A stretch of DNA of 64,000 nucleotides, from positions 9,946 through 73,945 of the forward strand of contig JAABPW010000228.1 in NCBI GenBank assembly GCA_011391785.1, given 5' to 3'. Position numbers and translations under genes: made by a program. This DNA is from Verrucomicrobiota bacterium. Its GTDB lineage: Bacteria; Verrucomicrobiota; Kiritimatiellia; CAIKKV01; CAITUY01. Under the pieces are notes generated by a model, which saw only the letters and a list, made by a program, of their open reading frames with translations, did not search any database and was not told the origin of the DNA. This document shows, piece after piece, positions 3,001 through 64,000 of this stretch (positions are counted from its first letter, which is position 1; every line of letters begins with the position of its first letter).

Positions 3001-3926
3001 GGCGAGATGGCGGTGGGATGGTTGTGCGTCTCAACCTTCATGAGGATATCGACCTGCTCCGGCAGACTGCCGTAGTGGTTGGATCCGCCGGGATGAACTT
3101 CAAACCAGTTTCCGGGAAAACCTTCCATTACCGAGGAATTGTCCTCATAGGCCATCAACGTGCCCTGCGGGTGCAGGGTGTGGGTGTTGCGAATCATGTC
3201 AAAAAGGCTCAGGGACTGGCGTTCGCCGTCCAGAATCCAATCGGCCTTGAAGATCTTGTGCCGGCAGTGCTCGGAGTTGACCTGCCCGAACATGACCAGC
3301 TCGACGTCAGTCGGGTTGCGCCGGAGCTTGGTGTAGACATCAAACAGGTATTGGATTTCCTCGTCCGAAAGCGCCAGGCCCAGCGTGATGTTCGCCTTTT
3401 TCAAGGCGGGAAGCCCCCCCTCGAGGATGTCGACGCACACGAGCGGGGCGGGGGGAATATGTTGGAAGATATCGGAGAGATCGGTGTAAACCCCCTCGGT
3501 CATCCGGTCGTGAATGACATGGAGCGCGGGCTTCAGCTGCGACAGGGTGGCGGATGAGTCATCGGCCAGCCGGACCTGGAAAAGCGATCCGCGTTCAACG
3601 CGCTGCACGGCGCCGAGTCCGCAGTTGTGGAAGATGTCGGTGGCCTTGGATGCCCAGGGTGACAAGGTTCCCTTGCGGGGCGTGACAAAAACTCCGTCAT
3701 GGGAGTGGGGCTGAATCCGGTTGTCGGTATCAAGCAGGGCGGCAACCCGCGGCCACAGTTCGGCGGGAAAATTCGTCGCGGTTTCAACGATGAAAACGGC
3801 ATGGACCTCGAGGGCGTCGATTTTGCATCCCGGCATTTCCCTGGAAATCTGGTGTTTCAGGGCGGAGAGGCGGAAGGCCGAGTGAACGGGCCCGCCTTTG
3901 AAGATGTGGAGTGTGTGGGTGGTCAT
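39..3926 (-). CDS. purL: phosphoribosylformylglycinamidine (FGAM) synthase, single-chain large form
   Basis: 1295-aa ORF with the PurL N-terminal region, duplicated AIR-synthase-like domains and a C-terminal class-I glutamine amidotransferase; stop TAA at 39-41. Confidence 0.95.
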
Positions 3927-3930
3927 GGGG

Positions 3931-4851
3931 TCAACTGTGTTTGTTTGTGATCAGGGGTTTGGGTTGCTGGTTGTAGACTTTTGAATGGGGGGGGACCGAA
4001 TGCGTGAGCCAGACATTGCCGCCGATTTCAGAGCCGGTTCCGATGACCGTCTCGCCTCCCAGAATGGTGGCGCCGGCGTAGATGGTGACATCGTCCTGGA
4101 CATCCGGGTGCCGCTTGATTCCCTTGATGGGATTGCCGTCGGCGTCCTTCGGAAAGCTCAGTGCGCCCAGGGTGACGCCCTGGTACAGCTTGACGCGGCG
4201 CCCGATGGTCGTGGTTTCGCCGATCACCACGCCGGTGCCGTGGTCAATGAAGAAGCCGGGTCCGATCATGGCGCCGGGATGGATGTCAATTCCCGTCTGG
4301 GAATGGGAGTACTCGGACATGATGCGCGGGATCAGGGGAACGTGCTCCTGATAAAGGACATGGGCTATCCGGTGGACCATGATGGCCTGAACCCCGGGGT
4401 AGCTCATGACCACCTCCATGATGGAACGGGCCGCCGGATCCCCTTCGTAGGCGGCCTGAATATCCTCCTGAAGTATCTTGCGGACGTCCATCAGGGATTC
4501 CATGAGCCGCTTGACGGCCTTGGCCGCCTTGAGGGCGCAGTCACCGCAGTCCTTGCATTGCTCAAAGACGCATTGATAACGGAAGGCGTACTCAATTTGT
4601 TCCGCGAGTGCGGCGGCACTTGTCTGGAGCCGTTTTTCGGTAATGGCACGTATTTGTTCGGCGGGTATCGGGTTTCGGCCGTGGCAACCGGGGAAGAGCA
4701 CGGCGACCAGGTCATCCAGGACCTGGTAGATTGCCTTTCGGCCTGACAGCTGGAAGCCCCGTGACGTATTGGAGGTCATGGCGCAGATATCGCAGCCGCT
4801 CAGGATGCGGGCAAGTTCGGGAATATCAATATTGTTGCCGGGGTTTTTCAT
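3931..4851 (-). CDS. cysE: serine O-acetyltransferase (long form with hexapeptide-repeat C-terminus)
   Basis: 306 aa; SATase N-terminal helical domain followed by left-handed beta-helix hexapeptide repeats ([25 protein letters not shown]...); RBS GAAGGAAA upstream of ATG. Confidence 0.9.
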
Positions 4852-49485: not shown

Positions 49486-52399
49486 GCGATATGCGACGAT
49501 GATCATCGGCGGGGCGTTGTGGCTGGCAGGGCAGACCGCCCCGGCCTTTGAGACAAACGCCCTGGCTCGCGCCATTGAGGACCTGTCGGCCTCGTTCCCG
49601 GCGCACTACACGCAGGGAGCTGATTTCCTGAAGCAATTGGCGGCGGTCCGCACCGAGGCTGAGTTCGCGGCCCTGGAGCGGAAGGCCCTGTTGGCCAATC
49701 CGCTTCTCGATTTCGACCAGGTGCTGGTGGTCAGGCGCGGCGCCGATAAGCTCGCCCTTCCCCAGAATTGGCAGGGAAACTGCGCCCTTCCTCCCAAAGG
49801 CTATCGCAACGACATCGCTGTCCTCTCCCTCTCCAACGGGGTTGCCAGGGCGCTCTTCACGCCGACCAACGGGGTGTTCGTCGGGGATGTGGATCTGGAT
49901 TTCGATGCCGACAAGCTCCTGTTCTCGATGCCTGATGACGCTGGCAACTGGCATGTCTGGGAACTGGTCGCGAACGGGGCCGGCCTTAAAAAGGTCACTC
50001 CCGATGAGCCGATGATTGACCAGTACGACGCCTGTTACCTGCCGGATGGCGGGATTATTTTCAACTCCACCGCCGCCGTTGCCGGGGTGCCCTGTGTCGG
50101 GGGCGGGACGGTTGTGGCCAACCTTTTCCGCATGTCGGCCGACCGGAGCACGATCCGGCGCCTATGCTTCGACCAGGAGCACAATTGGTGCCCCACGGTG
50201 TTGAATGACGGGCGTATCCTGTACACCCGCTGGGAATATACCGACACGCCGCATTACTTCACCCGCCTGCTGTTCTCGATGAATCCGGACGGAACGACCC
50301 AATCGGCCTACTATGGTAGCAATTCCTATTGGCCCAATTCCATCTTCTATGCGCGGCCCATTCCCGGTGTAGCGGGCAAGGTGGTTGGGATTGTCTCCGG
50401 TCACCACGGCGTGACGCGGATGGGGGATCTCATCCTGTTTGATCCGGGCTTCGGCCGCAACGAGTCCGCCGGGGTCGTCCAGCGTATTCCCGGGTTCGGG
50501 AAAAAGGTTGAACCGGTAATCAAGGATCAGCTGGTGGATGATGTCTGGCCGAAGTTCCTGCATCCCTATCCGCTGAGCGCGAAATATTTCCTGGTTTCCT
50601 GCAAGCCCGGACCCCATGAAAAGTGGGGGATATACCTGGTGGACGTTTTCGACAATAGGGTGCGGCTCTACGACGAGCCGGGCATGGCCATCCTGGAGCC
50701 CATCCCGTTCCGGAAGACCGTCAGGCCCCCGGTGATTCCCGACCGTGTCAATCTGGATGAAAAGGAAGCCACGGTCTATCTCAACGATGTCTATACGGGC
50801 CCCGGCCTCGCGGGTGTGCCTCGCGGGACAGTGACAAAACTTCGCGTCTACACCTATCATTTCGCCTACCCGGGAATGGGGGGGCATATCAACGTGGGGA
50901 TCGATGGCCCCTGGGATGTGCGCCGTTTACTGGGAACCGTGCCGGTCAATGCCGATGGCTCAGCATCGTTCAAGGTGCCTGCCAACATGCCCCTGGCCCT
51001 GCAGCCGCTGGACAAGGACGGGCAGGCCCTCCAGATCATGCGGAGCTGGTTCACCGCCATGCCCGGTGAGAGCGTGACCTGCGCGGGGTGTCATGAGAAG
51101 CAGAATACCACCCCGCCATCGCGACCGAACAAGGCGGTTCTGCAGAAACCGGTAACGATCACCCCGTGGTACGGTCCTTTCCGCGGTTTCAGCTTCACCC
51201 GCGAGGTGCAGCCGGTCCTGGACCGGAACTGCACCGGGTGTCATTCCCAATTCGCCGCGAACCAGCCCAAGATCGGCGGCTTTACCCGTTCCTATTTCGC
51301 CCTGCATCCCTTTGTGCGGCGGCCTGGCCCCGAGAGCGATTACCATATGCCGAAGCCCTACGAGTATCATGCAAGCACCAGTGAGCTGGTCCAGATGCTG
51401 CGCCAGGGGCATCATGGTGTCCGGCTCGACAAGGAGGACTGGGACCGCCTCACGACCTGGATCGACCTCAACGTCCCCGATCATGGCACATGGGGCGAGC
51501 ACCACTCCATCCCGGCAAACATGGAGACGTTGCGCCGGGACATGCTGAAGAAGTATGCGCAGATGGACGATAACCCGGAGGTGATCCCGGAGACGCCTGC
51601 CAGAAGCACTAAATTTGTCCCGCCCGCCGCGACGTCTCAGGAAAAACCGGCCGTCAAGGACTGGTCCGTTGATGCCCGCTGGGGCCAGGGACTGGCCCCT
51701 GAAATGAAATTCGATCTCGGGGAGGGGAAGGTTATGGAGCTGGTCCTGATCCCGGCGAAGAAGCCCTTCTATATGGGGCGTTTCGAGGTCGTGAATGCGC
51801 AGTACCGGCTGTTCGATCCGGATCATGACAGCGGTTATGTCCAGATCTTCAACAAGGACCGAACGGCCCGGGGGGTTCCGGTTAATGGGGCGGCCCAGCC
51901 TGTCGTGCGGGTCACCTGGCAGGAAGCCTCGGCTTTCTGTGCCTGGCTGTCGAAGAAAACGGGGAACAAATTCAAGCTGCCCGACGAAGATCAATGGGAA
52001 TGGGCCTGCCGCGCCGGAAAGGCGACCCCGATGTGGTACGGGGAGACCAACGCGGATTTTGCAACGTTCGCCAATCTGGCGGATACCAACCTGGCAGAAT
52101 TAACCCCCGGGAATTCCCCGAAATGGATTCCGGCGATCCGGACGGTCGATGACGGGGTGGCGGCAACGGCCGGGGTGGGGCGCTATCTGCCGAATCCGTG
52201 GGGACTTTACGACATGCACGGGAATGCCGCGGAATGGACCTCGTCCGTGACCCGCGAGGGGGAGCGGATCTGTCGGGGCGGCTCCTTCTATGACCGTCCG
52301 AAACGGGCCACCGCCAGTTCGTACCGCGGCTATCTTCCTTTCCAGCCGGTTTTTGATGTCGGGTTCAGGGTAATCATGGAACTTCCCGATCGTAAATGA
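49469..52399 (+). CDS. secreted TolB-like beta-propeller / CxxCH (PSCyt1-like) protein fused to a C-terminal FGE-sulfatase (formylglycine-generating enzyme family) domain, paralog C
   Basis: 976 aa; GTG start with GGAGG RBS, overlapping the AKR stop; propeller blocks paralogous to A/B; TCAGCHEKQ and NCTGCHSQ; C-terminal ~270 aa is FGE-like (RVTWQEASAFCAWL...WEWACRAG...MHGNAAEWTSS...RGGSF). Confidence 0.8.
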   Translation: MNRYAKRYATMIIGGALWLAGQTAPAFETNALARAIEDLSASFPAHYTQGADFLKQLAAVRTEAEFAALERKALLANPLLDFDQVLVVRRGADKLALPQNWQGNCALPPKGYRNDIAVLSLSNGVARALFTPTNGVFVGDVDLDFDADKLLFSMPDDAGNWHVWELVANGAGLKKVTPDEPMIDQYDACYLPDGGIIFNSTAAVAGVPCVGGGTVVANLFRMSADRSTIRRLCFDQEHNWCPTVLNDGRILYTRWEYTDTPHYFTRLLFSMNPDGTTQSAYYGSNSYWPNSIFYARPIPGVAGKVVGIVSGHHGVTRMGDLILFDPGFGRNESAGVVQRIPGFGKKVEPVIKDQLVDDVWPKFLHPYPLSAKYFLVSCKPGPHEKWGIYLVDVFDNRVRLYDEPGMAILEPIPFRKTVRPPVIPDRVNLDEKEATVYLNDVYTGPGLAGVPRGTVTKLRVYTYHFAYPGMGGHINVGIDGPWDVRRLLGTVPVNADGSASFKVPANMPLALQPLDKDGQALQIMRSWFTAMPGESVTCAGCHEKQNTTPPSRPNKAVLQKPVTITPWYGPFRGFSFTREVQPVLDRNCTGCHSQFAANQPKIGGFTRSYFALHPFVRRPGPESDYHMPKPYEYHASTSELVQMLRQGHHGVRLDKEDWDRLTTWIDLNVPDHGTWGEHHSIPANMETLRRDMLKKYAQMDDNPEVIPETPARSTKFVPPAATSQEKPAVKDWSVDARWGQGLAPEMKFDLGEGKVMELVLIPAKKPFYMGRFEVVNAQYRLFDPDHDSGYVQIFNKDRTARGVPVNGAAQPVVRVTWQEASAFCAWLSKKTGNKFKLPDEDQWEWACRAGKATPMWYGETNADFATFANLADTNLAELTPGNSPKWIPAIRTVDDGVAATAGVGRYLPNPWGLYDMHGNAAEWTSSVTREGERICRGGSFYDRPKRATASSYRGYLPFQPVFDVGFRVIMELPDRK

Positions 52400-52455
52400 T
52401 ACTCTCAACCCCGTTGCCCTGGGAGGGGGGCTGTCTGCATCGAGAAGGGGGAGGC

Positions 52456-54792
52456 ATGAGTATCAGGTTTGATCGTCTCTGTTCCATATTCGTGCTGATA
52501 TCGGCTGTTCCCGTGTTTGCCGCGGACGTGTCGCCGTCGCTGCCTGAGGTGGCGAAGCAATCGGTCCTGTTCGTCACGCGCCACCAATACCAGCGCGACC
52601 ACCATAACACGCACGATTTCTTTCCCGTGGCGGAGCATGAATTCAACCTGGGTGAATTCACGCCCGGCAGCGCCATGAAGATTATCGAGCTGCCGTCGCG
52701 GAAGATCACCACCCTCCTGGAAACGAAGACGGGCGTCATCCGCGACCCGGACCTGAGTTATGATGCCCGGAAAATTGTCTTCTCCATGCGCCGCGACACT
52801 CAGGACAGTTATCACATCTACGAGATCAATGTCGATGGGACGGGCTTGAGGCAACTGACGTCGCTGAAGGATGCCGATGATCTCGACCCGGTCATCCTGC
52901 CGGATGGCCACATCCTGTTCAGCTCTACCCGGGAACCGAAGTACTGCCTCTGCAACCGGCATATCATGGGCAACCTGTACCGCATGGAGCCGGATGGCGC
53001 CAACATCATCCAGATCAGCAAGAACACGCTGTTCGACAACAAGCCCTCCGTGATGCCGGATGGACGGATCCTCTATACGCGCTGGGAATATGTCGACCGC
53101 GAGCAGCTGAGCGCCCAGGGCCTGTGGGTCTGCAATCCCGACGGCACGCGTCACCAGTTGATCTGGGGGAACAACACGCAAAGTCCGGGCGGCATCCAGG
53201 ATGGCCGCATCATTCCTGGCACCCGTCAGCAGATCGTGTGCACCTTCTCTCCCTGCCACGACAGGAGCTGGGGGGCGATTGCCCTTATCAACCGATCCCT
53301 CGGCATGGACGGTCCGAAGCCCGTGGTGAAGATCTGGCCCGCCTCCGCCCGCCGCCTGATTGCGGAGGTCGGTTCCTGTGATGCCTTTGCCGTATGTAAT
53401 CCCAAGTACGAGGATCCCTATCCCCTGACGTATCCCGGGACCGGAATCGCGGGCCGCTATTTCCTCAGCATCCGAACCATCGGCAAGGGCGAAAAAACCG
53501 CGATCGTCCTGCTTGATGCCGAAGGCGAGGATGTTGTCCTGCACGAGGAGGTGGGGCCGCTGGGTTGCTTTGACCCCATGCCGGTGAGGGCAAGGGAAAA
53601 GCCGCCCGTTGTCCCGGCGCAACGCAAATACGATATTGGATCGGAAGGGGCCTTGTATATTTCCGACGTCTATAACGGAACCCACATGCAGGGGATCGCC
53701 AGGGGCGATGCCAAGTTCCTGCGAATTGTCGAAACGCCGGAAAAACGGTTTTACGTGCTACGGCATACCTGGACCGCCCCGGCCATCAACTGGAATGAAT
53801 TCAACACCAAGAGGATCATCGGCACCGTGCCGGTGGAGGAGGATGGCTCTGCCTATTTCACCGTTCCGTCCGAGAAATTCGTCTACTTCCAGTTGCTCGA
53901 CAAGGATGGCATGATGATCCAGTCCATGCGCAGCGGCACCTATGTCCAGCCGGGAGAAACGCAAGGGTGCAACGGCTGCCACGAGAACCGCCTGTCCACC
54001 CCGCTCACGCGCCCTGACAAGTCGGCGGCCTTGAGGAAGAAGCCCGCGGTCCCCTCAGGATGGTACGGGAGCAGGGAGTCCTTCAATTTCCTGTCCGCGA
54101 TCCAACCCATCCTGGACCAGCACTGCCTGAAGTGTCATGACTACGGCGGGCAGGGGGCCAGGAAAGTTGTGCTTGCGGGAGATAAGAGCGTCCCTTTCAA
54201 TGTGTCCTACATGGAACTGCACCGCAAAAAATATCTCGGCAGCATCGGGGCCGGCCCGGTTCCCATTTTCCAGCCGAAAACATGGGGATCCCATGCCAGT
54301 AAACTCATCGACATCCTGCGGAAGGGGCACAAGGAGGTGCGCCTGTCGCGGGAAGAACTCGACAAGATCATCACCTGGGTTGATCTCAATGCCCCTTATT
54401 ACCCCTCCTTTGCCTGTTCCTTCCCGGACAATGTGACGGGGCGCTGTCCGTTGAACGACGAGGAGTTGACGCGGCTCGAACAGATGACCGGGCGACCGGA
54501 CCTGATCGCCAGCCTCAATGAATGGGCCTGGAAAGCGCCTGAACCATTCCTGAATTTCGACCGGCCGGCCCTGAGCCCGATCATGCAGGCCGTTCCTGCG
54601 AAGGACAAGGAAACCGCCTTGAAGATCATTCAGACTGGCGCATTGCGTCTAAGGGACAAGCCTCGCGCCGACATGCCCGGGTTCAAGTTGTCGGGCCTCG
54701 ATGAATGGCGTGAAGAGAAGTATCAGAAGCGCCTTGGCCGTGAAGCGGTCAACCGGGAGGCCGTGACCAAGGGTAAAAAGGTCTATGATTGA
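52456..54792 (+). CDS. secreted TolB-like beta-propeller protein with two CxxCH motifs (PSCyt1-like), paralog B
   Basis: ~778 aa from MSIRFDRLCSIFVLISAVPVFAADV (RBS GGGGAGG); closest paralog of 38113-40584. Confidence 0.8.
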   Translation: MSIRFDRLCSIFVLISAVPVFAADVSPSLPEVAKQSVLFVTRHQYQRDHHNTHDFFPVAEHEFNLGEFTPGSAMKIIELPSRKITTLLETKTGVIRDPDLSYDARKIVFSMRRDTQDSYHIYEINVDGTGLRQLTSLKDADDLDPVILPDGHILFSSTREPKYCLCNRHIMGNLYRMEPDGANIIQISKNTLFDNKPSVMPDGRILYTRWEYVDREQLSAQGLWVCNPDGTRHQLIWGNNTQSPGGIQDGRIIPGTRQQIVCTFSPCHDRSWGAIALINRSLGMDGPKPVVKIWPASARRLIAEVGSCDAFAVCNPKYEDPYPLTYPGTGIAGRYFLSIRTIGKGEKTAIVLLDAEGEDVVLHEEVGPLGCFDPMPVRAREKPPVVPAQRKYDIGSEGALYISDVYNGTHMQGIARGDAKFLRIVETPEKRFYVLRHTWTAPAINWNEFNTKRIIGTVPVEEDGSAYFTVPSEKFVYFQLLDKDGMMIQSMRSGTYVQPGETQGCNGCHENRLSTPLTRPDKSAALRKKPAVPSGWYGSRESFNFLSAIQPILDQHCLKCHDYGGQGARKVVLAGDKSVPFNVSYMELHRKKYLGSIGAGPVPIFQPKTWGSHASKLIDILRKGHKEVRLSREELDKIITWVDLNAPYYPSFACSFPDNVTGRCPLNDEELTRLEQMTGRPDLIASLNEWAWKAPEPFLNFDRPALSPIMQAVPAKDKETALKIIQTGALRLRDKPRADMPGFKLSGLDEWREEKYQKRLGREAVNREAVTKGKKVYD

Positions 54793-54910
54793 GCCACGGC
54801 GCCCTATTGAATAACCACCCGAAAGTGGGGGTTCCAATATTCTTATTTCGGGTTACCTTTAAGCAAATGACCGAGATGGGGTGTCTACTATGGAGAAGGG
54901 GATAATTTTA

Positions 54911-56770
54911 ATGAAAAACTATCTGCGGTTTACGATGTCGGGTGTTGGGGCTGTCCTGGTGTGTGTCCTTGTGTCCCAGGCCCGGGCGGGATGGTTCAGT
55001 GCAAAAAGCGAAGCCCGTTATTATTCCCCTTGCGCCGTTGTGGCATCCGACGATGGTAACGATGTGTTCGTGGCCGAATATTCCGCCAACCAAGTGGTCC
55101 AGGCTGATGTTGTCAAGGGAGGCCTGAAGCGCACCATTGCCACAAAACTACCCCCGTCCGGTCTTGCCCTGGATTCCAGGTCCGGTGTCCTGTTTGTCAC
55201 ACTGGAGTCAAACGAGGGACAGGTTGTCCTGATCGACACCCGCACGGGAAAGCTGGAAGCCCGGATTGCCGTTGGCCATACCCCGCTTGCGCCGGCGTTG
55301 AGTCCCGACGGGAAGACCCTGGCCGTCTGCAACCGGTTCAATAACAATGTCAGCCTGATTGACGTCCCTTCCCGCAAGGAATCGGGGCGGGTTGCCGTTT
55401 CCCGGGAGCCCGTGGCGGCGGCCTTCTCGCCCGATGGTCGTCAGCTCCTGATCGCCAGCCATTTGCCGTCCATGCCCGCCAATGGCGACTATAGCGCTTC
55501 GGTCGTTACGGTGATTGATCCTGCCACGCGGCTTGTGGTGACCAACCTGACGCTTCCCAACGGGTCCACCGGGCTCCGGGGCCTGTGCGTTTCGCCCGAT
55601 GGCCGGTATGCCTATGTGACCCATACGCTTGGCCGGTATCAGTTGCCGACCACCCAGCTCGAGCGGGGGTGGATGAACACCAGCGCCATCAGCATTATTG
55701 ACCTGCAGGGCGTGAAGATGCTGTCCACCGTGCTGCTGGATGACGTTGACCTGGGGGCGGCTAATCCTTGGGGGGTGGCCTGTACGACCAATGGGGCGCT
55801 GTTGTGTGTGGCTCAGGCGGGCACGCACGAGGTCAGTGTGATTGACCGCAATGCCCTCCATGAACGCCTTGGCCGTGTTGCCAAGGGCGAGAAAGTCGGA
55901 GTGTCCCTGTCGCTGGAGGATGTCCCGAATGACCTGAGTTTCCTGGTCGGGATCCGGCAACGCGTCAAGCTGCCCGGGAACGGGCCCCGCGGGTTATGCC
56001 TGGCCGGTGACCTCGCGGTCGCGGGGATGTACTTCAGCGACAATCTGGCGGTTGTGTCGCTGACGACCACCCCGGTGGTGGCCCGCGAGGTGTCGCTTGG
56101 GCCCAAGACACCGCTTTCCGAGGAACGCAAGGGAGAGATGTATTTCAATGACGCCGCGTTCTGTTTCCAGGAATGGCAGAGCTGCGCGAGCTGTCACCCC
56201 GACGGAAGGGCAGATGCCCTGAACTGGGACCTGCTCAATGACGGGATTGGAAACCCGAAGAATACCAAGAACATGCTGCTGAGCGTTCAAACTCCGCCCT
56301 CGATGAGCCTCGCGGTGCGTGCGGATGCGGCCATGGGGGTTCGGGCAGGACTCAAGTTCATCCAGTTCTCCATGCGGCCTGAGGAGGATGCCCTGGCGAT
56401 TGATGCGTACCTGACCAAGATGAAGCCGGTTCCCAGCCCCTATCTCGAGAAAGGCAAGCTTAGCAAGGCCGCCCGCCGTGGCGAAAAGGTGTTCAGGAAG
56501 GCCAACTGCGCCACCTGTCATTCCGGCTCACTCTACACCGACCTCCAGACCCATGAGATGGGTATGGGGCAGGGGATGGACAAGGATAAGCCTTTTGATA
56601 CACCCACCCTTGTGGAGTGCTGGCGCACAGCGCCGTTTCTTCATGACGGGCGGGCCTCCACGATGAAGGAGCTGTTCCAGGAATTTAATAAGGATGACGT
56701 TCACGGTGACACCAGCAAGTTGTCGCCGCGGGAGCTGGATGACCTGGTGGAGTTTGTATTGTCGTTGTGA
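54911..56770 (+). CDS. secreted YVTN-family beta-propeller fused to a di-heme cytochrome c peroxidase (CCP/MauG-family) domain
   Basis: ~619 aa from MKNYLRF (RBS GAAGGGGA); N-terminal YVTN/PQQ-like repeats (SPDGKTLAVCNRFNNNVSLID, SPDGRQLLIASH, SPDGRYAYVTH); C-terminal CASCHPDG and CATCHSG with the CCP signature FDTPTLVECWRTAPFLHDGRASTMKE. Confidence 0.8.
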   Translation: MKNYLRFTMSGVGAVLVCVLVSQARAGWFSAKSEARYYSPCAVVASDDGNDVFVAEYSANQVVQADVVKGGLKRTIATKLPPSGLALDSRSGVLFVTLESNEGQVVLIDTRTGKLEARIAVGHTPLAPALSPDGKTLAVCNRFNNNVSLIDVPSRKESGRVAVSREPVAAAFSPDGRQLLIASHLPSMPANGDYSASVVTVIDPATRLVVTNLTLPNGSTGLRGLCVSPDGRYAYVTHTLGRYQLPTTQLERGWMNTSAISIIDLQGVKMLSTVLLDDVDLGAANPWGVACTTNGALLCVAQAGTHEVSVIDRNALHERLGRVAKGEKVGVSLSLEDVPNDLSFLVGIRQRVKLPGNGPRGLCLAGDLAVAGMYFSDNLAVVSLTTTPVVAREVSLGPKTPLSEERKGEMYFNDAAFCFQEWQSCASCHPDGRADALNWDLLNDGIGNPKNTKNMLLSVQTPPSMSLAVRADAAMGVRAGLKFIQFSMRPEEDALAIDAYLTKMKPVPSPYLEKGKLSKAARRGEKVFRKANCATCHSGSLYTDLQTHEMGMGQGMDKDKPFDTPTLVECWRTAPFLHDGRASTMKELFQEFNKDDVHGDTSKLSPRELDDLVEFVLSL

Positions 56771-57873: not shown

Positions 57874-57962
57874 TCCGGCTACTAAATAGTGGCGATTCCC
57901 GCACGACGAGCAAGATTCACCACCCGCTTCGCTAGAGGCGCGGAGACGCAGAGAAGAAAATG

Positions 57963-58009
57963 TTGCGGGAATTATGCCCGCGGAAATACCGTGGGCATAA
58001 TTCCCGCAA
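57963..58009. repeat. 17-bp perfect inverted repeat with 13-nt spacer (TTGCGGGAATTATGCCC ... GGGCATAATTCCCGCAA)
   Basis: read directly; lies at the GC-content boundary downstream of the RidA-like gene; no T-run follows. Confidence 0.7.
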
Positions 58010-58054
58010 CCCCTCTGGTGGAGAATTCCCAAGAGGAAAAGGATCCTAACGTCC

Positions 58055-58078
58055 CCCTCTCCCGCGTGCGGGAGAGGG
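58055..58078. terminator. GC-rich hairpin (CCCTCTCCCGC-gt-GCGGGAGAGGG), possible terminator for the minus-strand gene 58234-58821
   Basis: ~10-bp stem; on the minus strand it is followed by the T-rich GGATCCTTTTCCTCTT. Confidence 0.4.
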
Positions 58079-58233
58079 CTGGGGTGAGGGGTTCTGATCT
58101 CCGTCCTCTGTTATTCGTCACATTCGGGCTGTTTTTCAGTGCGTTTCTTTCCTGAGGCCGAACTGCCGACATGTCTTTATGGCTCTCCAAGAAGATGGAT
58201 ATATGACTATCAACTCACCTTCGGAGTAAAGCG

Positions 58234-58821
58234 TTACAAGCCACTCTCGAGGGGGCCAGCGGGCTCCGAAGCGGGTGCGTTTGTTGGTTCGACGATCTCT
58301 ATGGTGAAGACTTCCGTTGTGGCGGGTGGGTTCCAGCCGCGAGTAGACGCCCTGCGAGCCTGGCATTTGCGCGCCTCTTGGAAAATGTAGGAAATACCCC
58401 GTCTATGAAAATAACAGGAGGCACTTGTTTGATATTCCGGATGCTCTTGGCGGAAGTCAGCGATTCGCAGAATCAGCTGGTATTCATCTTCGCCATTAGG
58501 CCATTCGAGCCCGCGATGATCTCCAAATTCCGTCCAGCCGCTGTGTTCCAGAATTCTGCTGTTAATTATGTTGTTCAGACGATCAACGGCTCCGGGTAAA
58601 TCATTCTTTCGCTGGAGCAATTCCACAACAGATTGGAACTCGTCCAGCGTGTGATTGTTCTCGGCTCGGTTTTCGTATAACGAAGCTTCCAGGCATTGCT
58701 CCAGATATTGTAGGCGTTGGCGATCTGCAGGTTGCCCATGGGTCCACCCTATGAGGATGCCAAGACCAATGACTATGACTTGCAGAGCAATAAGGAGTAT
58801 GATTTTTCCATTTATCTTCAT
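58234..58821 (-). CDS. hypothetical N-terminally anchored protein
   Basis: 195 aa; MKINGKIILLIALQVIVIGLGILIGW signal anchor; RBS AAGGAA; immediately downstream of promoter cassette 1. Confidence 0.6.
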   Translation of the reverse strand: MKINGKIILLIALQVIVIGLGILIGWTHGQPADRQRLQYLEQCLEASLYENRAENNHTLDEFQSVVELLQRKNDLPGAVDRLNNIINSRILEHSGWTEFGDHRGLEWPNGEDEYQLILRIADFRQEHPEYQTSASCYFHRRGISYIFQEARKCQARRASTRGWNPPATTEVFTIEIVEPTNAPASEPAGPLESGL

Positions 58822-58837
58822 CCGTTCCTTACCTGGT

Positions 58838-58990
58838 TCAAATCAGTTCCCATTCATCATCTCCTTGCTTTCCTTATGTTCAACCCCTCATTCCGGCACC
58901 GTTTTGTCAGGCAGGTGCCTGAATCGCGGAAATGTAGGGGTGGGGGGACAAAGGGTCAAGGGCGATCTGAAGAAGTTCTTGATGGACGCT
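58838..58990 (-). promoter_or_regulatory. promoter-operator cassette copy 1: -35 TTGACC / 17 bp / -10 TACATT, then the 16-bp palindrome TCAGGCA-NN-TGCCTGA and a conserved ATGATGAATGGGAACTGA leader
   Basis: minus-strand reading of 58954-58959 (-35), 58931-58936 (-10), 58907-58922 (palindrome); whole cassette repeated at 63034-63160. Confidence 0.7.
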
Positions 58991-59592
58991 TAATTCGCGC
59001 CAGTATCAATAGCCTGCGACGCTTCGCTGGGTGTATTCATTCTCTTAAGGGCGCGAAGCGACGCCTTCATTTCAGTAAGTGTGTGGAATCCCGCCTCCTG
59101 TTCCCTGCGCCAGCGGTAGGCGTCATCCGCTTCAACCCGGGCAATGGTCCACTCAATCGCTTCAATCTGAAGCTCGGGGAGCGTCTTCTGCTGGTGTGAT
59201 TGCCACCAGGCAGCGATGTTGTCGCGGGTCAGGTAGGAGGGGCCGGACTTGTTGTAGGAGTACCATTCCACCTGCCAGACGATGATATTGAGGCACGCAT
59301 CGCCAACAGTTGTCCGGGTAGAGGTGTCGGCCTGGAAGCAGGGGCAGGCGGGGCGACGGTCTGGCAGGCTCGCGATTAGGGCGGGGAATACCGCCGTTCC
59401 CATGCTGATGAGCTTGTCATAAGCGAGCACCGCCGCCGGTGGATTGAACTGGCTGGTGGTATCCGCGAGCAGGTTGACCAGGTCCTGCGGCCTGTCCGGG
59501 CGAAAATCACTGAACGTCCGTGTCTGGCAGGAGGCGGTAAACATCCCCGCTATAGTCATCACAATCGCAATTGCCTGGTTTATTTTCATCAT
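58990..59592 (-). CDS. hypothetical lipoprotein
   Basis: ~200 aa from MMKINQAIAIVMTIAGMFTASC (lipobox); the ORF extends upstream but its N-terminus is non-protein-like. Confidence 0.6.
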   Translation of the reverse strand: MMKINQAIAIVMTIAGMFTASCQTRTFSDFRPDRPQDLVNLLADTTSQFNPPAAVLAYDKLISMGTAVFPALIASLPDRRPACPCFQADTSTRTTVGDACLNIIVWQVEWYSYNKSGPSYLTRDNIAAWWQSHQQKTLPELQIEAIEWTIARVEADDAYRWRREQEAGFHTLTEMKASLRALKRMNTPSEASQAIDTGAN

Positions 59593-59665
59593 TCTTATGG
59601 AGTGCCGACTCAAGCGACCACTCTCCAAATTTCCCGATGCCCTCTGGCATCTATATTCCTGGGCT

Positions 59666-60493
59666 TTATTCCTGATCACCCTTGGGCTTGATTCCGGCCC
59701 CTGCGATGATTTTCCTGATCTCATCTTTTGAGTCGAGGTTCTCCATTTTGAATCGGAAAGTTTTCACGATGCAGGAGACAAAATCCATCACGTCATTCGT
59801 GCAGCCTTTTCGGGTGCGGATATGCATTCCCACCGTCTGGGTTCCCGCCCTGTTCTGGATCGAGACATGTGATTTGGTGAAGTCATCAGGAGTCTCTCCT
59901 ACTCGAACCAGTCCGCGTGTTTCAGACGTGTGATAGGTGTGGACGCGCCGCATGCCTCGGCCTACTGAGAAGCCCTTTTCTTGAAGGAGTATTGAATTCA
60001 CAACGAAAACGGACCAATCCTCAAGACAGGCCTCCCATAATGATTCCGGGAGCATCTGCTCAGCGCGTATTTCCATGTCCAGGAATGTCGTGCCTGGACA
60101 CGGTGCGAGCGCACGGTAGGGATGGCTGGCGGGCAGCTTGGCTAACGCCTGTGATAAAATATTATTTGTCCATTCAGGCGCTGAAGGGTTGAACGGAATC
60201 AAAAAAAAGAAGCTTAGCCGGTCAGTGTTGCCCAGAACCACGCAACCTTCTCCGGATGACTTCAGTTGAACCGCGTTGGTCGAGGGGATGATGAATTCGG
60301 CATAACCAACATCGCAGGTCACGCCATGTTTGGCCTGGATGGGTGACAAGTCGAGTTCCGTCGCAACGACCCCGGCGCGATATCGCACTTCCGGATGATG
60401 GTACAGCTTATGTAACACATACCACCGCGAGCCCACACGCCATCCCGCGAGTGCGATAGCTAGCACAACAATGCTGATTATCCATTTCTTCAT
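59666..60493 (-). CDS. hypothetical exported protein (N-terminal signal anchor)
   Basis: 275 aa; MKKWIISIVVLAIALAG. Confidence 0.6.
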   Translation of the reverse strand: MKKWIISIVVLAIALAGWRVGSRWYVLHKLYHHPEVRYRAGVVATELDLSPIQAKHGVTCDVGYAEFIIPSTNAVQLKSSGEGCVVLGNTDRLSFFFLIPFNPSAPEWTNNILSQALAKLPASHPYRALAPCPGTTFLDMEIRAEQMLPESLWEACLEDWSVFVVNSILLQEKGFSVGRGMRRVHTYHTSETRGLVRVGETPDDFTKSHVSIQNRAGTQTVGMHIRTRKGCTNDVMDFVSCIVKTFRFKMENLDSKDEIRKIIAGAGIKPKGDQE

Positions 60494-60535
60494 CAGATTT
60501 CCGGTCCAAATGTCAGGACATCTCCGCTCCCTGCA

Positions 60536-60898
60536 TCATCCTGGGTTATAGCTCTTCGAAAGGTGGATTGAATATCCATCCGGGGTATTGAATATCACCT
60601 CGTTCTCTTTCCACTCAACAGCGCACTGCTTCATCCAGCCTGCCTTGTCATTGGTATATTGAATTGAGAATTCCGCGGGATAGTCCCATCCGCCACGATC
60701 AATATAAACCCTTTGCCTTTCGGCATGGAGGAAATCAACAATAGGGCTAAATGTCTGAACTCTTAAGGACAAATTCCCTTCAGGGGCTTTGTAGACATGA
60801 AGATCCTTCCATTCCCCCGCCGTTGAAAGAATTATCATGGCTGTGGGGAGCAGCAGCGTGATGAGGATAAGAAGTGTTGCTGCTGTTGATTTCTTCAT
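60536..60898 (-). CDS. hypothetical small secreted protein
   Basis: 120 aa; signal peptide MKKSTAATLLILITLLLPTA; abuts the upstream SPase-like gene. Confidence 0.6.
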   Translation of the reverse strand: MKKSTAATLLILITLLLPTAMIILSTAGEWKDLHVYKAPEGNLSLRVQTFSPIVDFLHAERQRVYIDRGGWDYPAEFSIQYTNDKAGWMKQCAVEWKENEVIFNTPDGYSIHLSKSYNPG

Positions 60899-60899
60899 T

Positions 60900-62009
60900 T
60901 CATTTTCCTTCCAGGGCGCTGATCCTGGTAAACGGCCAGTAGATCCGGGTCACCCTGCCGAGGATGTTCCGCTCGGGTACGGCGCCCCAGAATCGGCTGT
61001 CAAAGCTGTTCTGGGTGTTGTCGCCAAGAACCAGGTATTCATGGGGGCCAAGGGTGATTTCGTCGGTGGGTTTTGAAAGGCGTCCGCCGACCGGTCCAGC
61101 GAGCTGGAATCCAGCGTAGCCGCCGGACGAGGTCGATATGGTCTTGAATATCGGTGGTTCCATCACCTCGTGGCCGTTCACGATCAGGAAGGGGGGCGCG
61201 ATACGGATCCGTTCCCCGGGAAGCCCGGCGATGCGCTTGATATAGAAAGTGCCGGGAGGGAGGGTAGGGATGCCCTCGGTGCGGAAGACCACGATGTCAC
61301 CCCGCTTTGGCTTGCTGAAAAGATACGAGATCCGCTCGATGAACACGTGGTCACCGGCGGTTACGATGCCTGCCCACAGCGTATCGCCAGCTGACACTTG
61401 CTCGCCGGGCTGCTTGAGCGGTGGCGCGAAGCGCGGTAGCTCATACTGCCGGGAACCGACACGACATGTCAGCCAGGATGGGTCAACTCGGGAAAGAGAC
61501 ATCGCGGAAAACGTGCCGCTGGACTCCGCCTTGACCTCCAGATAACGCTGCCCCGACAGGAGCCACTGGGAAAAGCCAGGCTTGTCACACGAATCCGCAG
61601 GCATGCTTCGCGCATGGGTCCCGAAGATGGTCGGCTGCATTGTGCCGGTTGGCACCTTGAAGGGATGGATGAATTGCCGTGCCAGGAAGCTTGAGCCGCT
61701 TCTGAGAACTATGGCTATAACAATGAGGGTTAGCCAGCCGGGGATCCCGATCCGCTGGACGGGGCGGTATGATTGCTTGAGCATCACGAGCCACAAGACA
61801 ACGCCGGCGGGAATAATGGCCAGTCCGAGAATGAAGGGGGCCATGCCCGGAGTGGCAAGGAGCGCCACGCCGACAACGCCACAGGCAAACAGGCTAATAT
61901 ACCACTTCAGGCCAGCTGCACGCTGGCCCGACAGGAAATGGGCGGCGCCGGCGAGTAGCATCCCAAGCACTACGCCAACCCACTCGCGATATGGTTGTTT
62001 GTTGTTCAT
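60900..62009 (-). CDS. signal peptidase I (S26) homolog with extended polytopic N-terminus and Thr at the nucleophile position
   Basis: 369 aa; boxes B-E recognisable (VPTGTMQPT in place of PSGSMxPT, KRGDIVVF, YIKRIAGLPGE, GDNTQNSFDSRFWG); ~110-aa N-terminal region with 3-4 TM helices. Confidence 0.75.
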   Translation of the reverse strand: MNNKQPYREWVGVVLGMLLAGAAHFLSGQRAAGLKWYISLFACGVVGVALLATPGMAPFILGLAIIPAGVVLWLVMLKQSYRPVQRIGIPGWLTLIVIAIVLRSGSSFLARQFIHPFKVPTGTMQPTIFGTHARSMPADSCDKPGFSQWLLSGQRYLEVKAESSGTFSAMSLSRVDPSWLTCRVGSRQYELPRFAPPLKQPGEQVSAGDTLWAGIVTAGDHVFIERISYLFSKPKRGDIVVFRTEGIPTLPPGTFYIKRIAGLPGERIRIAPPFLIVNGHEVMEPPIFKTISTSSGGYAGFQLAGPVGGRLSKPTDEITLGPHEYLVLGDNTQNSFDSRFWGAVPERNILGRVTRIYWPFTRISALEGK

Positions 62010-62024
62010 CCCTGCATGCGTTTC

Positions 62025-63026
62025 CTAGTAGCAGTCGCTTGCCCATGTGACGTTTCCACGGGTGTCGATCATGAAGTAGATGCAGCCTACGTCTCCAAAC
62101 ATCATTTCATAGAGCTCCCCGTCTGACTCTTCGTCGCCGTCCGATATGCTCCGCGGGAGTGCTTCCATGTTCGTAAACGGCCATTTTTCTTTAGGCTGAA
62201 CACTGCTGAGCGCGCAAATGAACTCCTGGCCCTTTTTGCGGGGATCGCCCTGGATTACATAGGTTTCCCGGCCGATCTTCGTGCTTTGACTCTTTGAGAG
62301 GAGGTAGGATTCATAGTGCCCTTCCTTTTCAAAGATCTCGGTGCTGTCCGGATATTCGTTACAGCGGTGGAGCTCGCCCGCGAGTTCGGGAACAGCAAAA
62401 CCGGGTTTCGGGCAGTCCTTTTGGGTCATCGGTTGCCGGAGCGAGGCGGAAGACCACTCGATATGCACATCGCCCGGGTCGCCTGCATAACTCTCGGAGT
62501 CCTTGAAGAACACCAGCATGATGTCGCCAGGCAACTTGTCCGACACAATATCCTTCGAGTCCAGGAAACAGAACTGGGCTACAAATGTATAGGGCCTGCC
62601 TGTCTTTTCGGTGGGCCATTGCAAGGATTTCTCCCTGTGCGGCACACCCCCTGTTTTCGTCAGGTAAGGCTTCTCCGGCGCCCCATGACTCCAGATAATC
62701 GTGTCAACCGGCACACGCCGTCCCAGATCGTGTTTTTTCGCGACACGCTCCCGGACGAGTTCCACCTGGCAAAGGTCGGAGGGGCTGCTGATGATCGTGC
62801 CGCTGGCCTTCCAGAGATCGAGAGGATCACCCTTCGGGGTAGTCGAGTACTGGTGCGGACCGTCCTTCTTCTCGAAAGTCTCGATAGGGAAGATCGCGCG
62901 CCACTTGGCGAAGTCTACCGTCGGATGGTGCTTCGCCGCAGGTCCCTTGATGGAAGAACTGTCGGGCTCCTGTTTCGTGCACGAAGCAAGGACAGTTGCA
63001 AGAAGTATTACAGGTACTATCTTTTT
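62025..63026 (-). CDS. DUF1963/YwqG-like lipoprotein
   Basis: ~333 aa from MKKIVPVILLATVLASC (lipobox); C-terminal blocks TFVAQFCFLD...GDIMLVFF...GELYEMMFGDVGCIYFMID resemble the YwqG family; directly downstream of promoter cassette 2. Confidence 0.6.
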   Translation of the reverse strand, partial: KKIVPVILLATVLASCTKQEPDSSSIKGPAAKHHPTVDFAKWRAIFPIETFEKKDGPHQYSTTPKGDPLDLWKASGTIISSPSDLCQVELVRERVAKKHDLGRRVPVDTIIWSHGAPEKPYLTKTGGVPHREKSLQWPTEKTGRPYTFVAQFCFLDSKDIVSDKLPGDIMLVFFKDSESYAGDPGDVHIEWSSASLRQPMTQKDCPKPGFAVPELAGELHRCNEYPDSTEIFEKEGHYESYLLSKSQSTKIGRETYVIQGDPRKKGQEFICALSSVQPKEKWPFTNMEALPRSISDGDEESDGELYEMMFGDVGCIYFMIDTRGNVTWASDCY

Positions 63027-63033
63027 CATATTC

Positions 63034-63160
63034 AGATCAGTTCCCATTCATCATTCCGATGCCGTATTGTCAGGCAGGTGCCTGAATTGCGGAAATGTAG
63101 GGGCGGGGGAGTGAACGGTCAAGGGCGATCTGGATAAGTCCTTGGTGACGGAGGGTTTGC
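63034..63160 (-). promoter_or_regulatory. promoter-operator cassette copy 2 (-35 TTGACC 63117-63122, -10 TACATT 63094-63099, palindrome TCAGGCAGGTGCCTGA 63070-63085, leader ATGATGAATGGGAACTGA)
   Basis: near-identical to copy 1 except for a 44-nt indel between the palindrome and the leader; read directly from the sequence. Confidence 0.7.
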
Positions 63161-63808
63161 CTGTTTTGAAGTTATTCCGTTGAGGAGGTCGCATGCCGTC
63201 TTTTTGCGTTTCGCGTTGTTTTCCAGTGCGGTGCGGTAGTCTTTCAGGCGCTCCTCCAGTATGCGAATCTGGCTCTCATTGACTGGCGTCAGCTTGCTTT
63301 GTTTATCAAGGGTGGCTTGAAGCTTGTCGATGACTCTGGCAAGCCGGTTGCATTCCTTGGTCAGCGACTTGATCAATACCTCAAGCTCGCTTTGCTGCGG
63401 ATGGACCTCTTTTCCCAGGGGACGCAGGCTGCATCCGGCATCACCAAGGTCGACGAGCTTGCTCTTCACTATATTGAAACGATATCTCGTGTCTGGGCGG
63501 TACAGGCGGGCCGGGTCGCCTGACGCAAGGTAGCCATCATGGTGGAGCCTGAAATACTGGCCGGCGTAATTGGTTGGTGAGAGCACAAAGAAGAGGAACG
63601 CTCCGGCGCCTGAACCGGTAGCCTTGTCGCCTGTAAATAGCGGGGCATGTTCCCCCGTTGGCAGTTCGCGCCACAATTCATAACCAGCGAGCGAGGCGGT
63701 GACCTCGATCGTTTCAGGGTGCGGCGTGGGGTCCTGCCGGGATGCCTTGTTCATCTGGCAGGCGGAGGTTGTGGCAATGGCAAGAATCAATACGGCAAGT
63801 GTTCTCAT
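63119..63808 (-). CDS. hypothetical lipoprotein with C-terminal coiled coil
   Basis: 229 aa; MRTLAVLILAIATTSAC lipobox; its stop codon lies inside the -35 of cassette copy 2. Confidence 0.6.
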   Translation of the reverse strand: MRTLAVLILAIATTSACQMNKASRQDPTPHPETIEVTASLAGYELWRELPTGEHAPLFTGDKATGSGAGAFLFFVLSPTNYAGQYFRLHHDGYLASGDPARLYRPDTRYRFNIVKSKLVDLGDAGCSLRPLGKEVHPQQSELEVLIKSLTKECNRLARVIDKLQATLDKQSKLTPVNESQIRILEERLKDYRTALENNAKRKKTACDLLNGITSKQANPPSPRTYPDRP

Positions 63809-63881
63809 GATTGTTTTTCGCTATTGAACATCAGCGCACACTCCCGATCCTGCCGGCTGGCATCCATGGCCAGACTGGCTC

Positions 63882-64000
63882 AGGGTTCAAACCTGACCCA
63901 GTCCACGTTGTTTACCGCTCCGCCGGGGAAGACCAGGTACAGGTTGTGAATGCCGGCGGCATGATCGATGCCGCATTCGGACTGGCCGGGAAGGAGCTGG
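63882..64000 (-). CDS. 3' end of an unidentified minus-strand CDS running off the window
   Basis: protein-like reading frame ...LLPGQSECGIDHAAGIHNLYLVFPGGAVNNVDWVRFEP* ending at TGA; too short for the ORF track. Confidence 0.3.

Follow-up and report, generated by a model that had tools for sequence, protein, structure and literature searches.

Signal peptidase I, which cleaves signal peptides after Ala-X-Ala, is essential and a target for antibiotics, and its Ser/Lys dyad is regarded as a diagnostic feature of the enzyme. In LepB of Escherichia coli, from which the numbering of Ser88, Gly272 and Ser278 used below is also taken, Ser90 is the nucleophile and Lys145 the general base (PMC4049620, PMC2259416). 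Natural inactive homologues of peptidase family S26 have been described, i.e., SipA of Streptococcus pyogenes (PMC4049620) and SpsA of Staphylococcus aureus (PMC12414704). Here, we discuss a gene for a 369-amino acid (aa) S26 protein on the minus strand of a 64,000-nucleotide (nt) stretch (positions 9,946 to 73,945 of contig JAABPW010000228.1), further called the window, from a Verrucomicrobiota bacterium of the Kiritimatiellia lineage. An original prediction, made from the sequence of the window, had drawn attention to a Thr at the position of the catalytic Ser in this protein. The real finding is not this Thr itself but the degeneracy of the catalytic dyad throughout the family to which the protein belongs, together with a strongly conserved N-terminal membrane module.

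The canonical enzymes LepB, SipS and SpsB (MEROPS S26A, PF10502, TIGR02227) share with the 369-aa protein the fold, boxes B to E, the order of these elements, the YIKR and GDNxxNSxDSR motifs and the residues of the S1 pocket, and in all of them a membrane anchor is located N-terminal to the periplasmic domain. However, the nucleophile is Ser in these enzymes, whereas it is replaced by Thr in the 369-aa protein and by Ala in most of its family, in which the Lys column is variable too. The anchor, which consists of one or two simple transmembrane (TM) helices in the canonical enzymes, is a conserved four-helix module here. Furthermore, an insert of 87 aa directly follows box B, whereas domain II of E. 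coli LepB is located between boxes D and E.

SipA/LepA of the S. pyogenes pilus loci (PDB 4n31 and 4k8w) and S. aureus SpsA combine the S26 fold and a retained cleft with the absence of the catalytic Ser, and a non-catalytic role in binding or as a chaperone was proposed for them, as it is here. However, SipA and SpsA have lost Ser, Lys, Gly272 and Ser278, whereas Lys, Gly and Ser278 are kept here (Lys in 82% of the family). Also, SipA is encoded in sortase/pilin operons and SpsA beside spsB, whilst the gene discussed here has no conserved neighbours, and it belongs to another phylum, i.e., in the diderm Planctomycetes-Verrucomicrobia-Chlamydiae (PVC) group, and encodes another type of membrane anchor. 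The 369-aa protein is not of the SipA/SpsA type, although functionally it may be analogous.

The S36A variant of SpsB is a stable catalytic mutant that could be crystallised (PMC4704075), and the SpsB chain in PDB entry 4wvg has Ala at the nucleophile position. This folded and stable protein has the consensus active-site make-up of the family discussed here, with Ala as the nucleophile residue and Lys and the cleft intact. It is, however, a laboratory construct, whereas in the family it is a natural state, maintained over deep divergence. The signal peptidases of the endoplasmic reticulum type and SipW type, finally, have a Ser-His dyad and are encoded alongside their cargo. In contrast, the protein discussed here has Lys, its best matches are P-type enzymes (LepB and SpsB), and its neighbours are not conserved.

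Threonine at the position of the catalytic serine

The 369-aa protein matches Pfam family PF10502 (Peptidase_S26) over residues 217-358 with an E-value of 2.4e-32 and 112.7 bits (cut-off 22.9), and the NCBIfam model for signal peptidase I, TIGR02227, with 108.7 bits (cut-off 47). The cut-offs of the models for conjugative TraF peptidases were missed (36.6 vs. 100.25 bits for TIGR02771 and 22 vs. 156-186 bits for PRK13884 and PRK13838). When its structural model was searched with Foldseek, SpsB and LepB were matched with E-values of 3e-9 to 1e-7 and SipA (4n31) with 3e-7. In PHROGs, the protein itself matches one unannotated S26-like family, and PADLOC gave no matches for the protein and its six neighbours.

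Alignment with E. coli LepB, obtained with phmmer against the sequences of PDB chains, consists of three colinear blocks. In the box B block, pfkvpTgTmqptif is placed opposite PFQIPSGSMMPTLL of LepB; in the block with boxes C and D, kpkRGDIVVF...fYIKRiaGLPGe is opposite hPKRGDIVVF...dYIKRAVGLPGD; and in the box E block, GDNtqNSfDSRfWG is opposite GDNRDNSADSRYWG. The residues equivalent to Ser88, Ser90, Lys145, Gly272 and Ser278 of LepB are T121, T123, K258, G329 and S335, respectively. Boxes C to E are intact, as had been noticed in the original prediction: RGDIVVF of box C occupies residues 236-242, the general-base Lys of box D is present as K258 within YIKR, and GDNTQNSFDSR of box E aligns with GDNRDNSADSR of LepB, with counterparts of Gly272, Ser278, Asp280 and Arg282. 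In box B, the nucleophilic Ser of S26A enzymes is absent, with Thr123 opposite Ser90. No Ser that might occupy the nucleophile position instead, which would have refuted the original observation, is present within two residues of T123. The protein is an S26 protein with Thr in place of the catalytic Ser.

An element that had been overlooked is the insert of ~87 aa, which separates box B from the next core strand (GDHVFIERISY). It is present in a 'long' form of the family and absent from a 'short' form of ~280 aa. The insert has no match in Pfam, and in Foldseek it resembles small beta-barrel domains (cytochrome f and SI3 of RNA polymerase) only weakly.

More than 400 relatives, with the source labels Kiritimatiellae/Kiritimatiellia, Verrucomicrobia and Lentisphaerae, were found among 5.8 billion proteins, and the key columns were tabulated in an alignment of the best 120. 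Column 123 is occupied by Ala in 78 of these homologues, by Ser in 27, by Thr in seven, by Gly in six, and by Asp and Val in one each. Column 258 contains Lys in 99, Phe in seven, Gln in six and Met in four of them, the other residues being Tyr, Arg and Asn. Hence, the Lys is replaced in 21 of 120 (~18%), independently of the presence of Ser at position 123, and Ser and Lys are found together in just 19 homologues. Since Lys losses occur in Ser-bearing members too, where they are at least as frequent as in Ala-bearing ones, the two columns do not behave as a dyad.

The same picture emerges from proteins selected for the presence of the N-terminal module. Among 197 of these, column 123 contains Ala in 97, Ser in 72 (37%), Gly in 12 and Thr in eight. 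In 61 representatives at 50% identity, the numbers are 29 for Ser, 15 for Ala, nine for Gly, four for Thr and four for other residues, with Ser and Lys both intact in 24. In the canonical S26 controls from other phyla found in the same searches, Ser is present in 60 of 63 (95%), as compared with 72 of 197 in the family. Hence, the degeneracy is a peculiarity of this family.

Close relatives of the 369-aa protein mostly have Ala. Out of 28 listed homologues with at least 59% identity, 25 have Ala123, the exceptions being the 369-aa protein itself and two proteins with Ser, i.e., P0020, in which Met takes the place of Lys, and P0029. In the nearest relatives (~70% identity), Ala123 is encoded by GCA, and because the Ala codons of the relatives vary synonymously (GCA, GCG and GCC), Ala at this position must be old. 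The codon for Thr123, ACA, is one transition away from GCA; the Ser-type relatives use AGC. The ACN codons of Thr and the GGN codons of Gly are one-step intermediates between AGY for Ser and GCN for Ala, which may explain the minor states Thr and Gly. In a crude neighbour-joining tree, Ser-, Ala-, Gly- and Thr-bearing sequences are interspersed, with many independent switches, and the 369-aa protein is nested among Ala-bearing sequences. Thr is sporadic at this column (~4-6% of the members), and in P0075, P0160, P0193 and P0216 it co-occurs with Arg at the general-base column. From these sequence comparisons, we infer that Thr123 is probably a one-step variant of the Ala of the family and not an adaptation. 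The original suggestion of a Thr-nucleophile variant has lost much of its appeal, given the Ala in most relatives, including the closest ones, the codon relationship and the four Thr-bearing members with Arg instead of Lys.

Two further observations concern proteins in which the general-base Lys is replaced. P0071, P0074, P0079, P0084, P0090 and P0130 form a sub-clade of proteins of ~505 aa with ~135 extra N-terminal residues, which in P0079 make up three more TM helices. All of them have Phe instead of Lys and, with the exception of P0074, Ala instead of Ser278, whilst Ser or Thr is still found at positions 121/123; these proteins are surely inactive by the canonical mechanism. Also outside the PVC family, a cyanobacterial S26 paralogue from Moorena sp. 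(P0355) has both dyad residues replaced (IPSGAM and FIERVVG) and is an independent dead signal-peptidase homologue.

A conserved cleft: binding or cleavage

In an alignment of 80 sequences that are 41-72% identical to the 369-aa protein, 17 columns are invariant and ~50 are nearly so. The invariant ones are G21, H24, W36 and S80 in the N-terminal module, M124 and P126 in box B, and D220, P234, R236, G237, R259, P264, D330, D337, R339, P359 and R362 in the S26 core, whilst neither position 123 nor position 258 is among them. Pocket residues, box E and residues of the N-terminal module (H24, W36, S80 and R86) are better conserved than the catalytic dyad. The S1 pocket of E. coli LepB is formed by Ile86, Pro87, Met91, Leu95, Tyr143 and Ile144 (PMC2259416). 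Their equivalents, V119, P120, M124, I128, Y256 and I257, are all conserved in the alignment of 120 homologues, and likewise F117 and V241 near the cleft. By this measure, the peptide cleft looks maintained. The degenerate catalytic residues could be taken as a sign that the gene is decaying and has lost its function, but this is scarcely credible for an intact open reading frame (ORF) with hundreds of homologues, so many conserved columns down to ~41% identity, and a confident structural model (pLDDT 94).

With about an even chance, the protein is a LepB-derived inner-membrane pseudo-peptidase of the PVC lineage, or at best a crippled enzyme, which would bind rather than cut. Consistently, the nucleophile column takes any small residue, with Ala as the consensus, and the buried Lys is conserved together with S335 and box E. 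The S26 domain would dock the c-region of a signal peptide or signal anchor that leaves the translocon without cleaving it, similarly as in a Ser-to-Ala substrate-trap mutant, and the protein might serve as a holdase, as a receptor or as a competitor of the true LepB. The three TM helices would bring the S26 domain to the periplasmic face of the membrane, and the conserved cytoplasmic face (H24, S80, R82 and R86) may contact a partner or lipid. A pseudo-peptidase was one of three possibilities offered in the original prediction, next to the Thr-nucleophile variant and a slow or specialised peptidase, and it is the one that fits best, although, unlike in SipA and SpsA, Lys and box E are kept.

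Several observations weigh against this reading. Most members keep Lys258, Gly329, Ser335 and box E in its entirety, which is unexpected if catalysis is irrelevant. A hydroxyl at position 121 or 123, which could still do chemistry, is kept in 166 of 175 family members (95%). About one third of the wider family has Ser and Lys intact and may represent real enzymes; the family is, thus, not uniformly dead. Furthermore, none of the neighbouring genes is conserved.

The retained hydroxyl is central to the main alternative, a possible but unlikely one, in which the proteins are active, slow or specialised signal peptidases that use a Thr123-Lys258 dyad or, in the relatives with Ala123, the hydroxyl at position 121, the Ser88 site, as a replacement. 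Besides the residues retained by most members, the distribution of hydroxyls argues for this possibility. Position 121 is Thr or Ser in 141 of the 175 members. Ser or Thr is present at both positions in 41, only at 121 in 100, only at 123 in 25 and at neither in nine, and the two are anticorrelated (odds ratio 0.15, p = 3e-6 in a Fisher test that ignores kinship). In the 50%-identity representatives, the corresponding numbers are 18, 24, 15 and 3 (p = 0.005, again with kinship ignored). When all columns were scanned for Ser, Thr or Cys against Ser123, the strongest negative association was that of position 121 (p = 1.7e-6, kinship ignored), although unrelated columns attain p-values of ~4e-5. 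The O-gamma of Ser88 in LepB is located at the scissile carbonyl, where it hydrogen-bonds the substrate backbone at P1/P2 (PMC2259416, PMC4704075), and the 369-aa protein has Thr at both positions.

However, P0008 and P0028, which are 70 and 61% identical to the 369-aa protein, have P-N-G-A-M with Asn121 and Ala123, hence a hydroxyl at neither site, and are otherwise equally conserved. The hydroxyl is also kept equally in members without Lys (31 of 33), which points to hydrogen bonding to the backbone of a ligand rather than to Lys-activated catalysis, and the statistics do not take phylogeny into account. The four members with Thr123 and Arg instead of Lys are difficult to reconcile with a Thr-Lys dyad as well. 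Moreover, replacement of Ser by Thr in serine proteases usually reduces activity by orders of magnitude. On the sequence pattern, a hydroxyl for holding a peptide would fit at least as well as one for attack. It is improbable that the nucleophile has been moved or exchanged in this family, as in a natural experiment, with activity via Thr/Ser121 or via Thr123 and Lys258, and that the 369-aa protein is a genuine Thr-Lys signal peptidase.

The N-terminal membrane module

The original prediction had described an unusually long polytopic N-terminus of ~110 aa, and this part of the protein is indeed predicted with confidence in an AlphaFold2 (AF2) model of the whole protein (pLDDT 94.2, pTM 0.86), with helices at residues 9-18, 22-26, 30-52, 56-79 and 88-113. 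The module consists of a kinked or re-entrant helix pair (residues 9-26) followed by three TM helices (30-52, 56-79 and 88-113). The helix pair carries the motif G21-S/A-A-H24-F-L-S-G28, and G12, G21, H24, G28, G33, W36, S80, R86, G91 and W92 are near-invariant in the module.

In the family, the mean number of Lys and Arg residues is 2.9 in the N-terminus (residues 1-9), 2.4 in loop 27-35, 0.04 in loop 53-56 and 3.5 in loop 78-88. As positive charge sits in the N-terminus and in loops 27-35 and 78-88, these segments would be cytoplasmic according to the positive-inside rule, and we infer a topology with a cytoplasmic N-terminus, a re-entrant pair at residues 9-26, three TM helices and a periplasmic S26 domain. 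The N-terminal extensions of longer members are either soluble, ~140 aa long and without a signal peptide or a Pfam match, or consist of extra TM helices with an Arg-rich linker, and therefore support a cytoplasmic N-terminus as well. H24 and S80 were considered as a replacement for the nucleophile. This option was rejected, since these residues would face the cytoplasm on this topology, away from the periplasmic S26 site; also, the position of H24 is occupied by Gln, Leu or Ile in an outer clade.

When residues 1-115 alone were searched against 1.84 billion cluster representatives, only 115 clusters were found, and those that are long enough to judge run on into an S26 domain. In a Pfam scan, the module had no significant match; the only ones with E-values up to 10, DUF202 (E 0.14) and DUF6541 (E 0.65), are below threshold, and DUF6677, DUF5683 and TM2 were not matched. 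The protein P0182 gave a weak match to DUF6677 (E 0.0097). No structural match of the modelled module was found in the PDB. With hhalign, however, residues 4 to ~80 of the family align with the DUF6677/DUF5683-type "PGxGHxY" region of P0341, an S26 protein of another lineage. Thus, the architecture of a small TM2-like module plus S26 has precedents. Like the 369-aa protein, P0341, P0288 and P0314, which have DUF6677/DUF5683/TM2-like motifs, start with a small membrane module (G-x-G-H/Q-x-Y/F-x-G) that is followed by S26. Unlike most of the family of the 369-aa protein, proteins of this type retain the Ser nucleophile, with P0339 (Asn) as an exception, and the module of the 369-aa protein is below every Pfam threshold.

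Genetic setting and implications

The positions of the features discussed above and of the neighbouring genes are listed in Table 1. In the order of transcription, the S26-like gene is the second of a minus-strand run.

Table 1. The S26-like gene, its elements and the genes around it (positions in the window).
Feature	Position	Strand	Basis or remarks
LepB-like S26 protein, Thr at nucleophile position	60900..62009	(-)	369 aa, ATG start
N-terminal membrane module, residues 1-113	61671..62009	(-)	Conservation, AF2 helices
Box B, FKVPTGTMQPTI, residues 117-128; M124 and P126 invariant in family	61626..61661	(-)	phmmer and family alignment
Thr121 codon ACC (forward-strand ggt); Ser88 position, oxyanion-hole hydroxyl	61647..61649	(-)	Codon read directly
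Thr123 codon ACA (forward-strand tgt); Ser90 position	61641..61643	(-)	Codon read directly
Insert of ~87 aa, residues 129-216, beta-rich	61362..61625	(-)	Alignment, AF2 model, Foldseek
S26 core, residues 217-362, boxes C, D and E	60924..61361	(-)	Pfam, phmmer, Foldseek
Lys258 codon AAG (forward-strand ctt); Lys145 position, general base	61236..61238	(-)	Codon read directly
Box E, GDNTQNSFDSR, residues 329-339; S335 is Ser278 position; D337 and R339 invariant	60993..61025	(-)	phmmer and family alignment
229-aa lipoprotein-like gene, upstream of 340-aa gene	63119-63808
Candidate operon promoter ahead of 340-aa gene, sigma-70-like (TTGACC-17-TACATT)	63094..63122	(-)	Inside a repeat, recurs at 58931-58959
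Upstream gene, 340-aa lipoprotein, lipobox VLASC, DUF1963/YwqG domain	62025..63047	(-)	15-nt gap, same operon
Downstream gene, 120 aa, N-terminal signal peptide or anchor, without family match	60536..60898	(-)	1-nt gap
275-aa protein, signal peptide or anchor	59666-60493	(-)
244-aa ORF	58990-59724	(-)	Likely start MKINQ...FTASC
195-aa protein	58234-58821	(-)	Behind repeated promoter-like element

The original prediction had described a run of at least six genes for proteins with a signal peptide or lipobox, and had compared the gene with dedicated signal peptidases that are encoded beside their cargo. The first part stands insofar as all six neighbours have hydrophobic N-termini. However, three of them have a lipobox or lipobox-like sequence (VLASC, TTSAC and FTASC) and are therefore expected to be substrates of signal peptidase II and not of signal peptidase I. 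A dedicated peptidase or chaperone for adjacent exported proteins, like SipW for TasA or SipA for pilins, would agree with the organisation in one minus-strand operon with tight gaps and six such small genes, and a small exported protein adjoins some of the relatives, too. Nevertheless, such a function is highly unlikely. Besides the lipoboxes, tblastn searches with the six neighbours gave no matches at the loci of three relatives (L001-L003), and each of the loci of nine relatives has an entirely different set of genes. Moreover, the neighbours are located in a stretch of lower guanine-cytosine (GC) content (51-57% over positions 58000-64000), whereas the S26-like gene has the ~60% of the window overall. 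No sortase, pilin or second S26 gene was found in the window or at the relatives' loci.

Some other features of this region may be mentioned. A direct repeat of ~120-150 nt is present at positions 58837-58984 and 63031-63147 (97 nt with 85% identity and 24 nt with 96%). Both copies include a sigma-70-like site on the minus strand (TTGACC-17-TACATT) together with the initial codons of the gene that follows. Apparently, a promoter with its 5' region has been duplicated, with one copy ahead of the 340-aa gene and the other ahead of the 195-aa gene. A 22-nt inverted repeat at positions 57962-58010 (95% complementary, 5-nt loop), located between convergent genes, is probably a bidirectional terminator at the left end of the minus-strand run. 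Apart from the DUF1963/YwqG lipoprotein, positions 58000-64000 are filled with genes for small exported proteins and lipoproteins without a Pfam match, and the segment is a candidate for an accessory island, or for an array of immunity-like proteins of the periplasm. Further away, a 798-aa protein with a middle domain of hydrazine-synthase-alpha type (PF18582, E 4e-31) is encoded at positions 52396-54792, and the adjoining gene at 54881-56770 encodes a beta-propeller protein of 629 aa with a c-type cytochrome/CCP_MauG-like domain at its C-terminus. This gene pair is unusual for a Kiritimatiellia-like genome.

The question whether the 369-aa protein serves as the signal peptidase I of the organism can be approached from the occurrence of other S26 genes. 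In the window and in 12 loci of relatives (~150 kb), tblastn and phmmer found no second S26 gene, only the family gene itself, which is single-copy at every locus seen. Hence, the gene might be the sole S26 gene of the organism and encode its housekeeping signal peptidase I with an unconventional active site. This is very improbable, however, as the visible part of any of the genomes is small, and as Ala, Gly, Asn, Asp or Val at the nucleophile position or Phe, Gln or Met at that of the base would be intolerable in an essential enzyme. Also, the relatives often reside in a context other than the lepA/rnc type. Several of them (L086 at positions 3167-4264, and those on the P0055 contigs, the P0027 contig and L088) have as neighbours toxin-antitoxin pairs such as HicAB, an intact or fragmentary phage-integrase gene, primase-like genes (Toprim/DUF5906), a reverse transcriptase of a group II intron or a Y1 transposase. 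Such settings suggest residence in the flexible genome. A scan of genome contigs gave, among the matches listed, canonical LepBs of other phyla and two full-length relatives, from Kiritimatiellales SZUA-494 and Pontiellaceae B12219, but no match from the genome of the window itself. A search seeded with P0169, an outer member with Ser and Lys intact, returned relatives labelled Verrucomicrobiae and none with a Kiritimatiellia label. In the literature, no paper on signal peptidase I in Kiritimatiellae was found.

The family of the PVC group is annotated as "signal peptidase I" although the Ser is usually replaced by Ala. Such annotation misleads both genome annotation and secretome predictions in Kiritimatiellia, Lentisphaerae and Verrucomicrobia. 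If the proteins are active, they would demonstrate that, in a Ser/Lys protease, the hydroxyl can move to another position or be supplied by Thr. If they are binders, as in the pseudo-peptidase reading preferred here, they would constitute a diderm counterpart of the Gram-positive pseudo-peptidases SipA and SpsA, and would offer a natural trap that may be used to capture signal-peptide clients.

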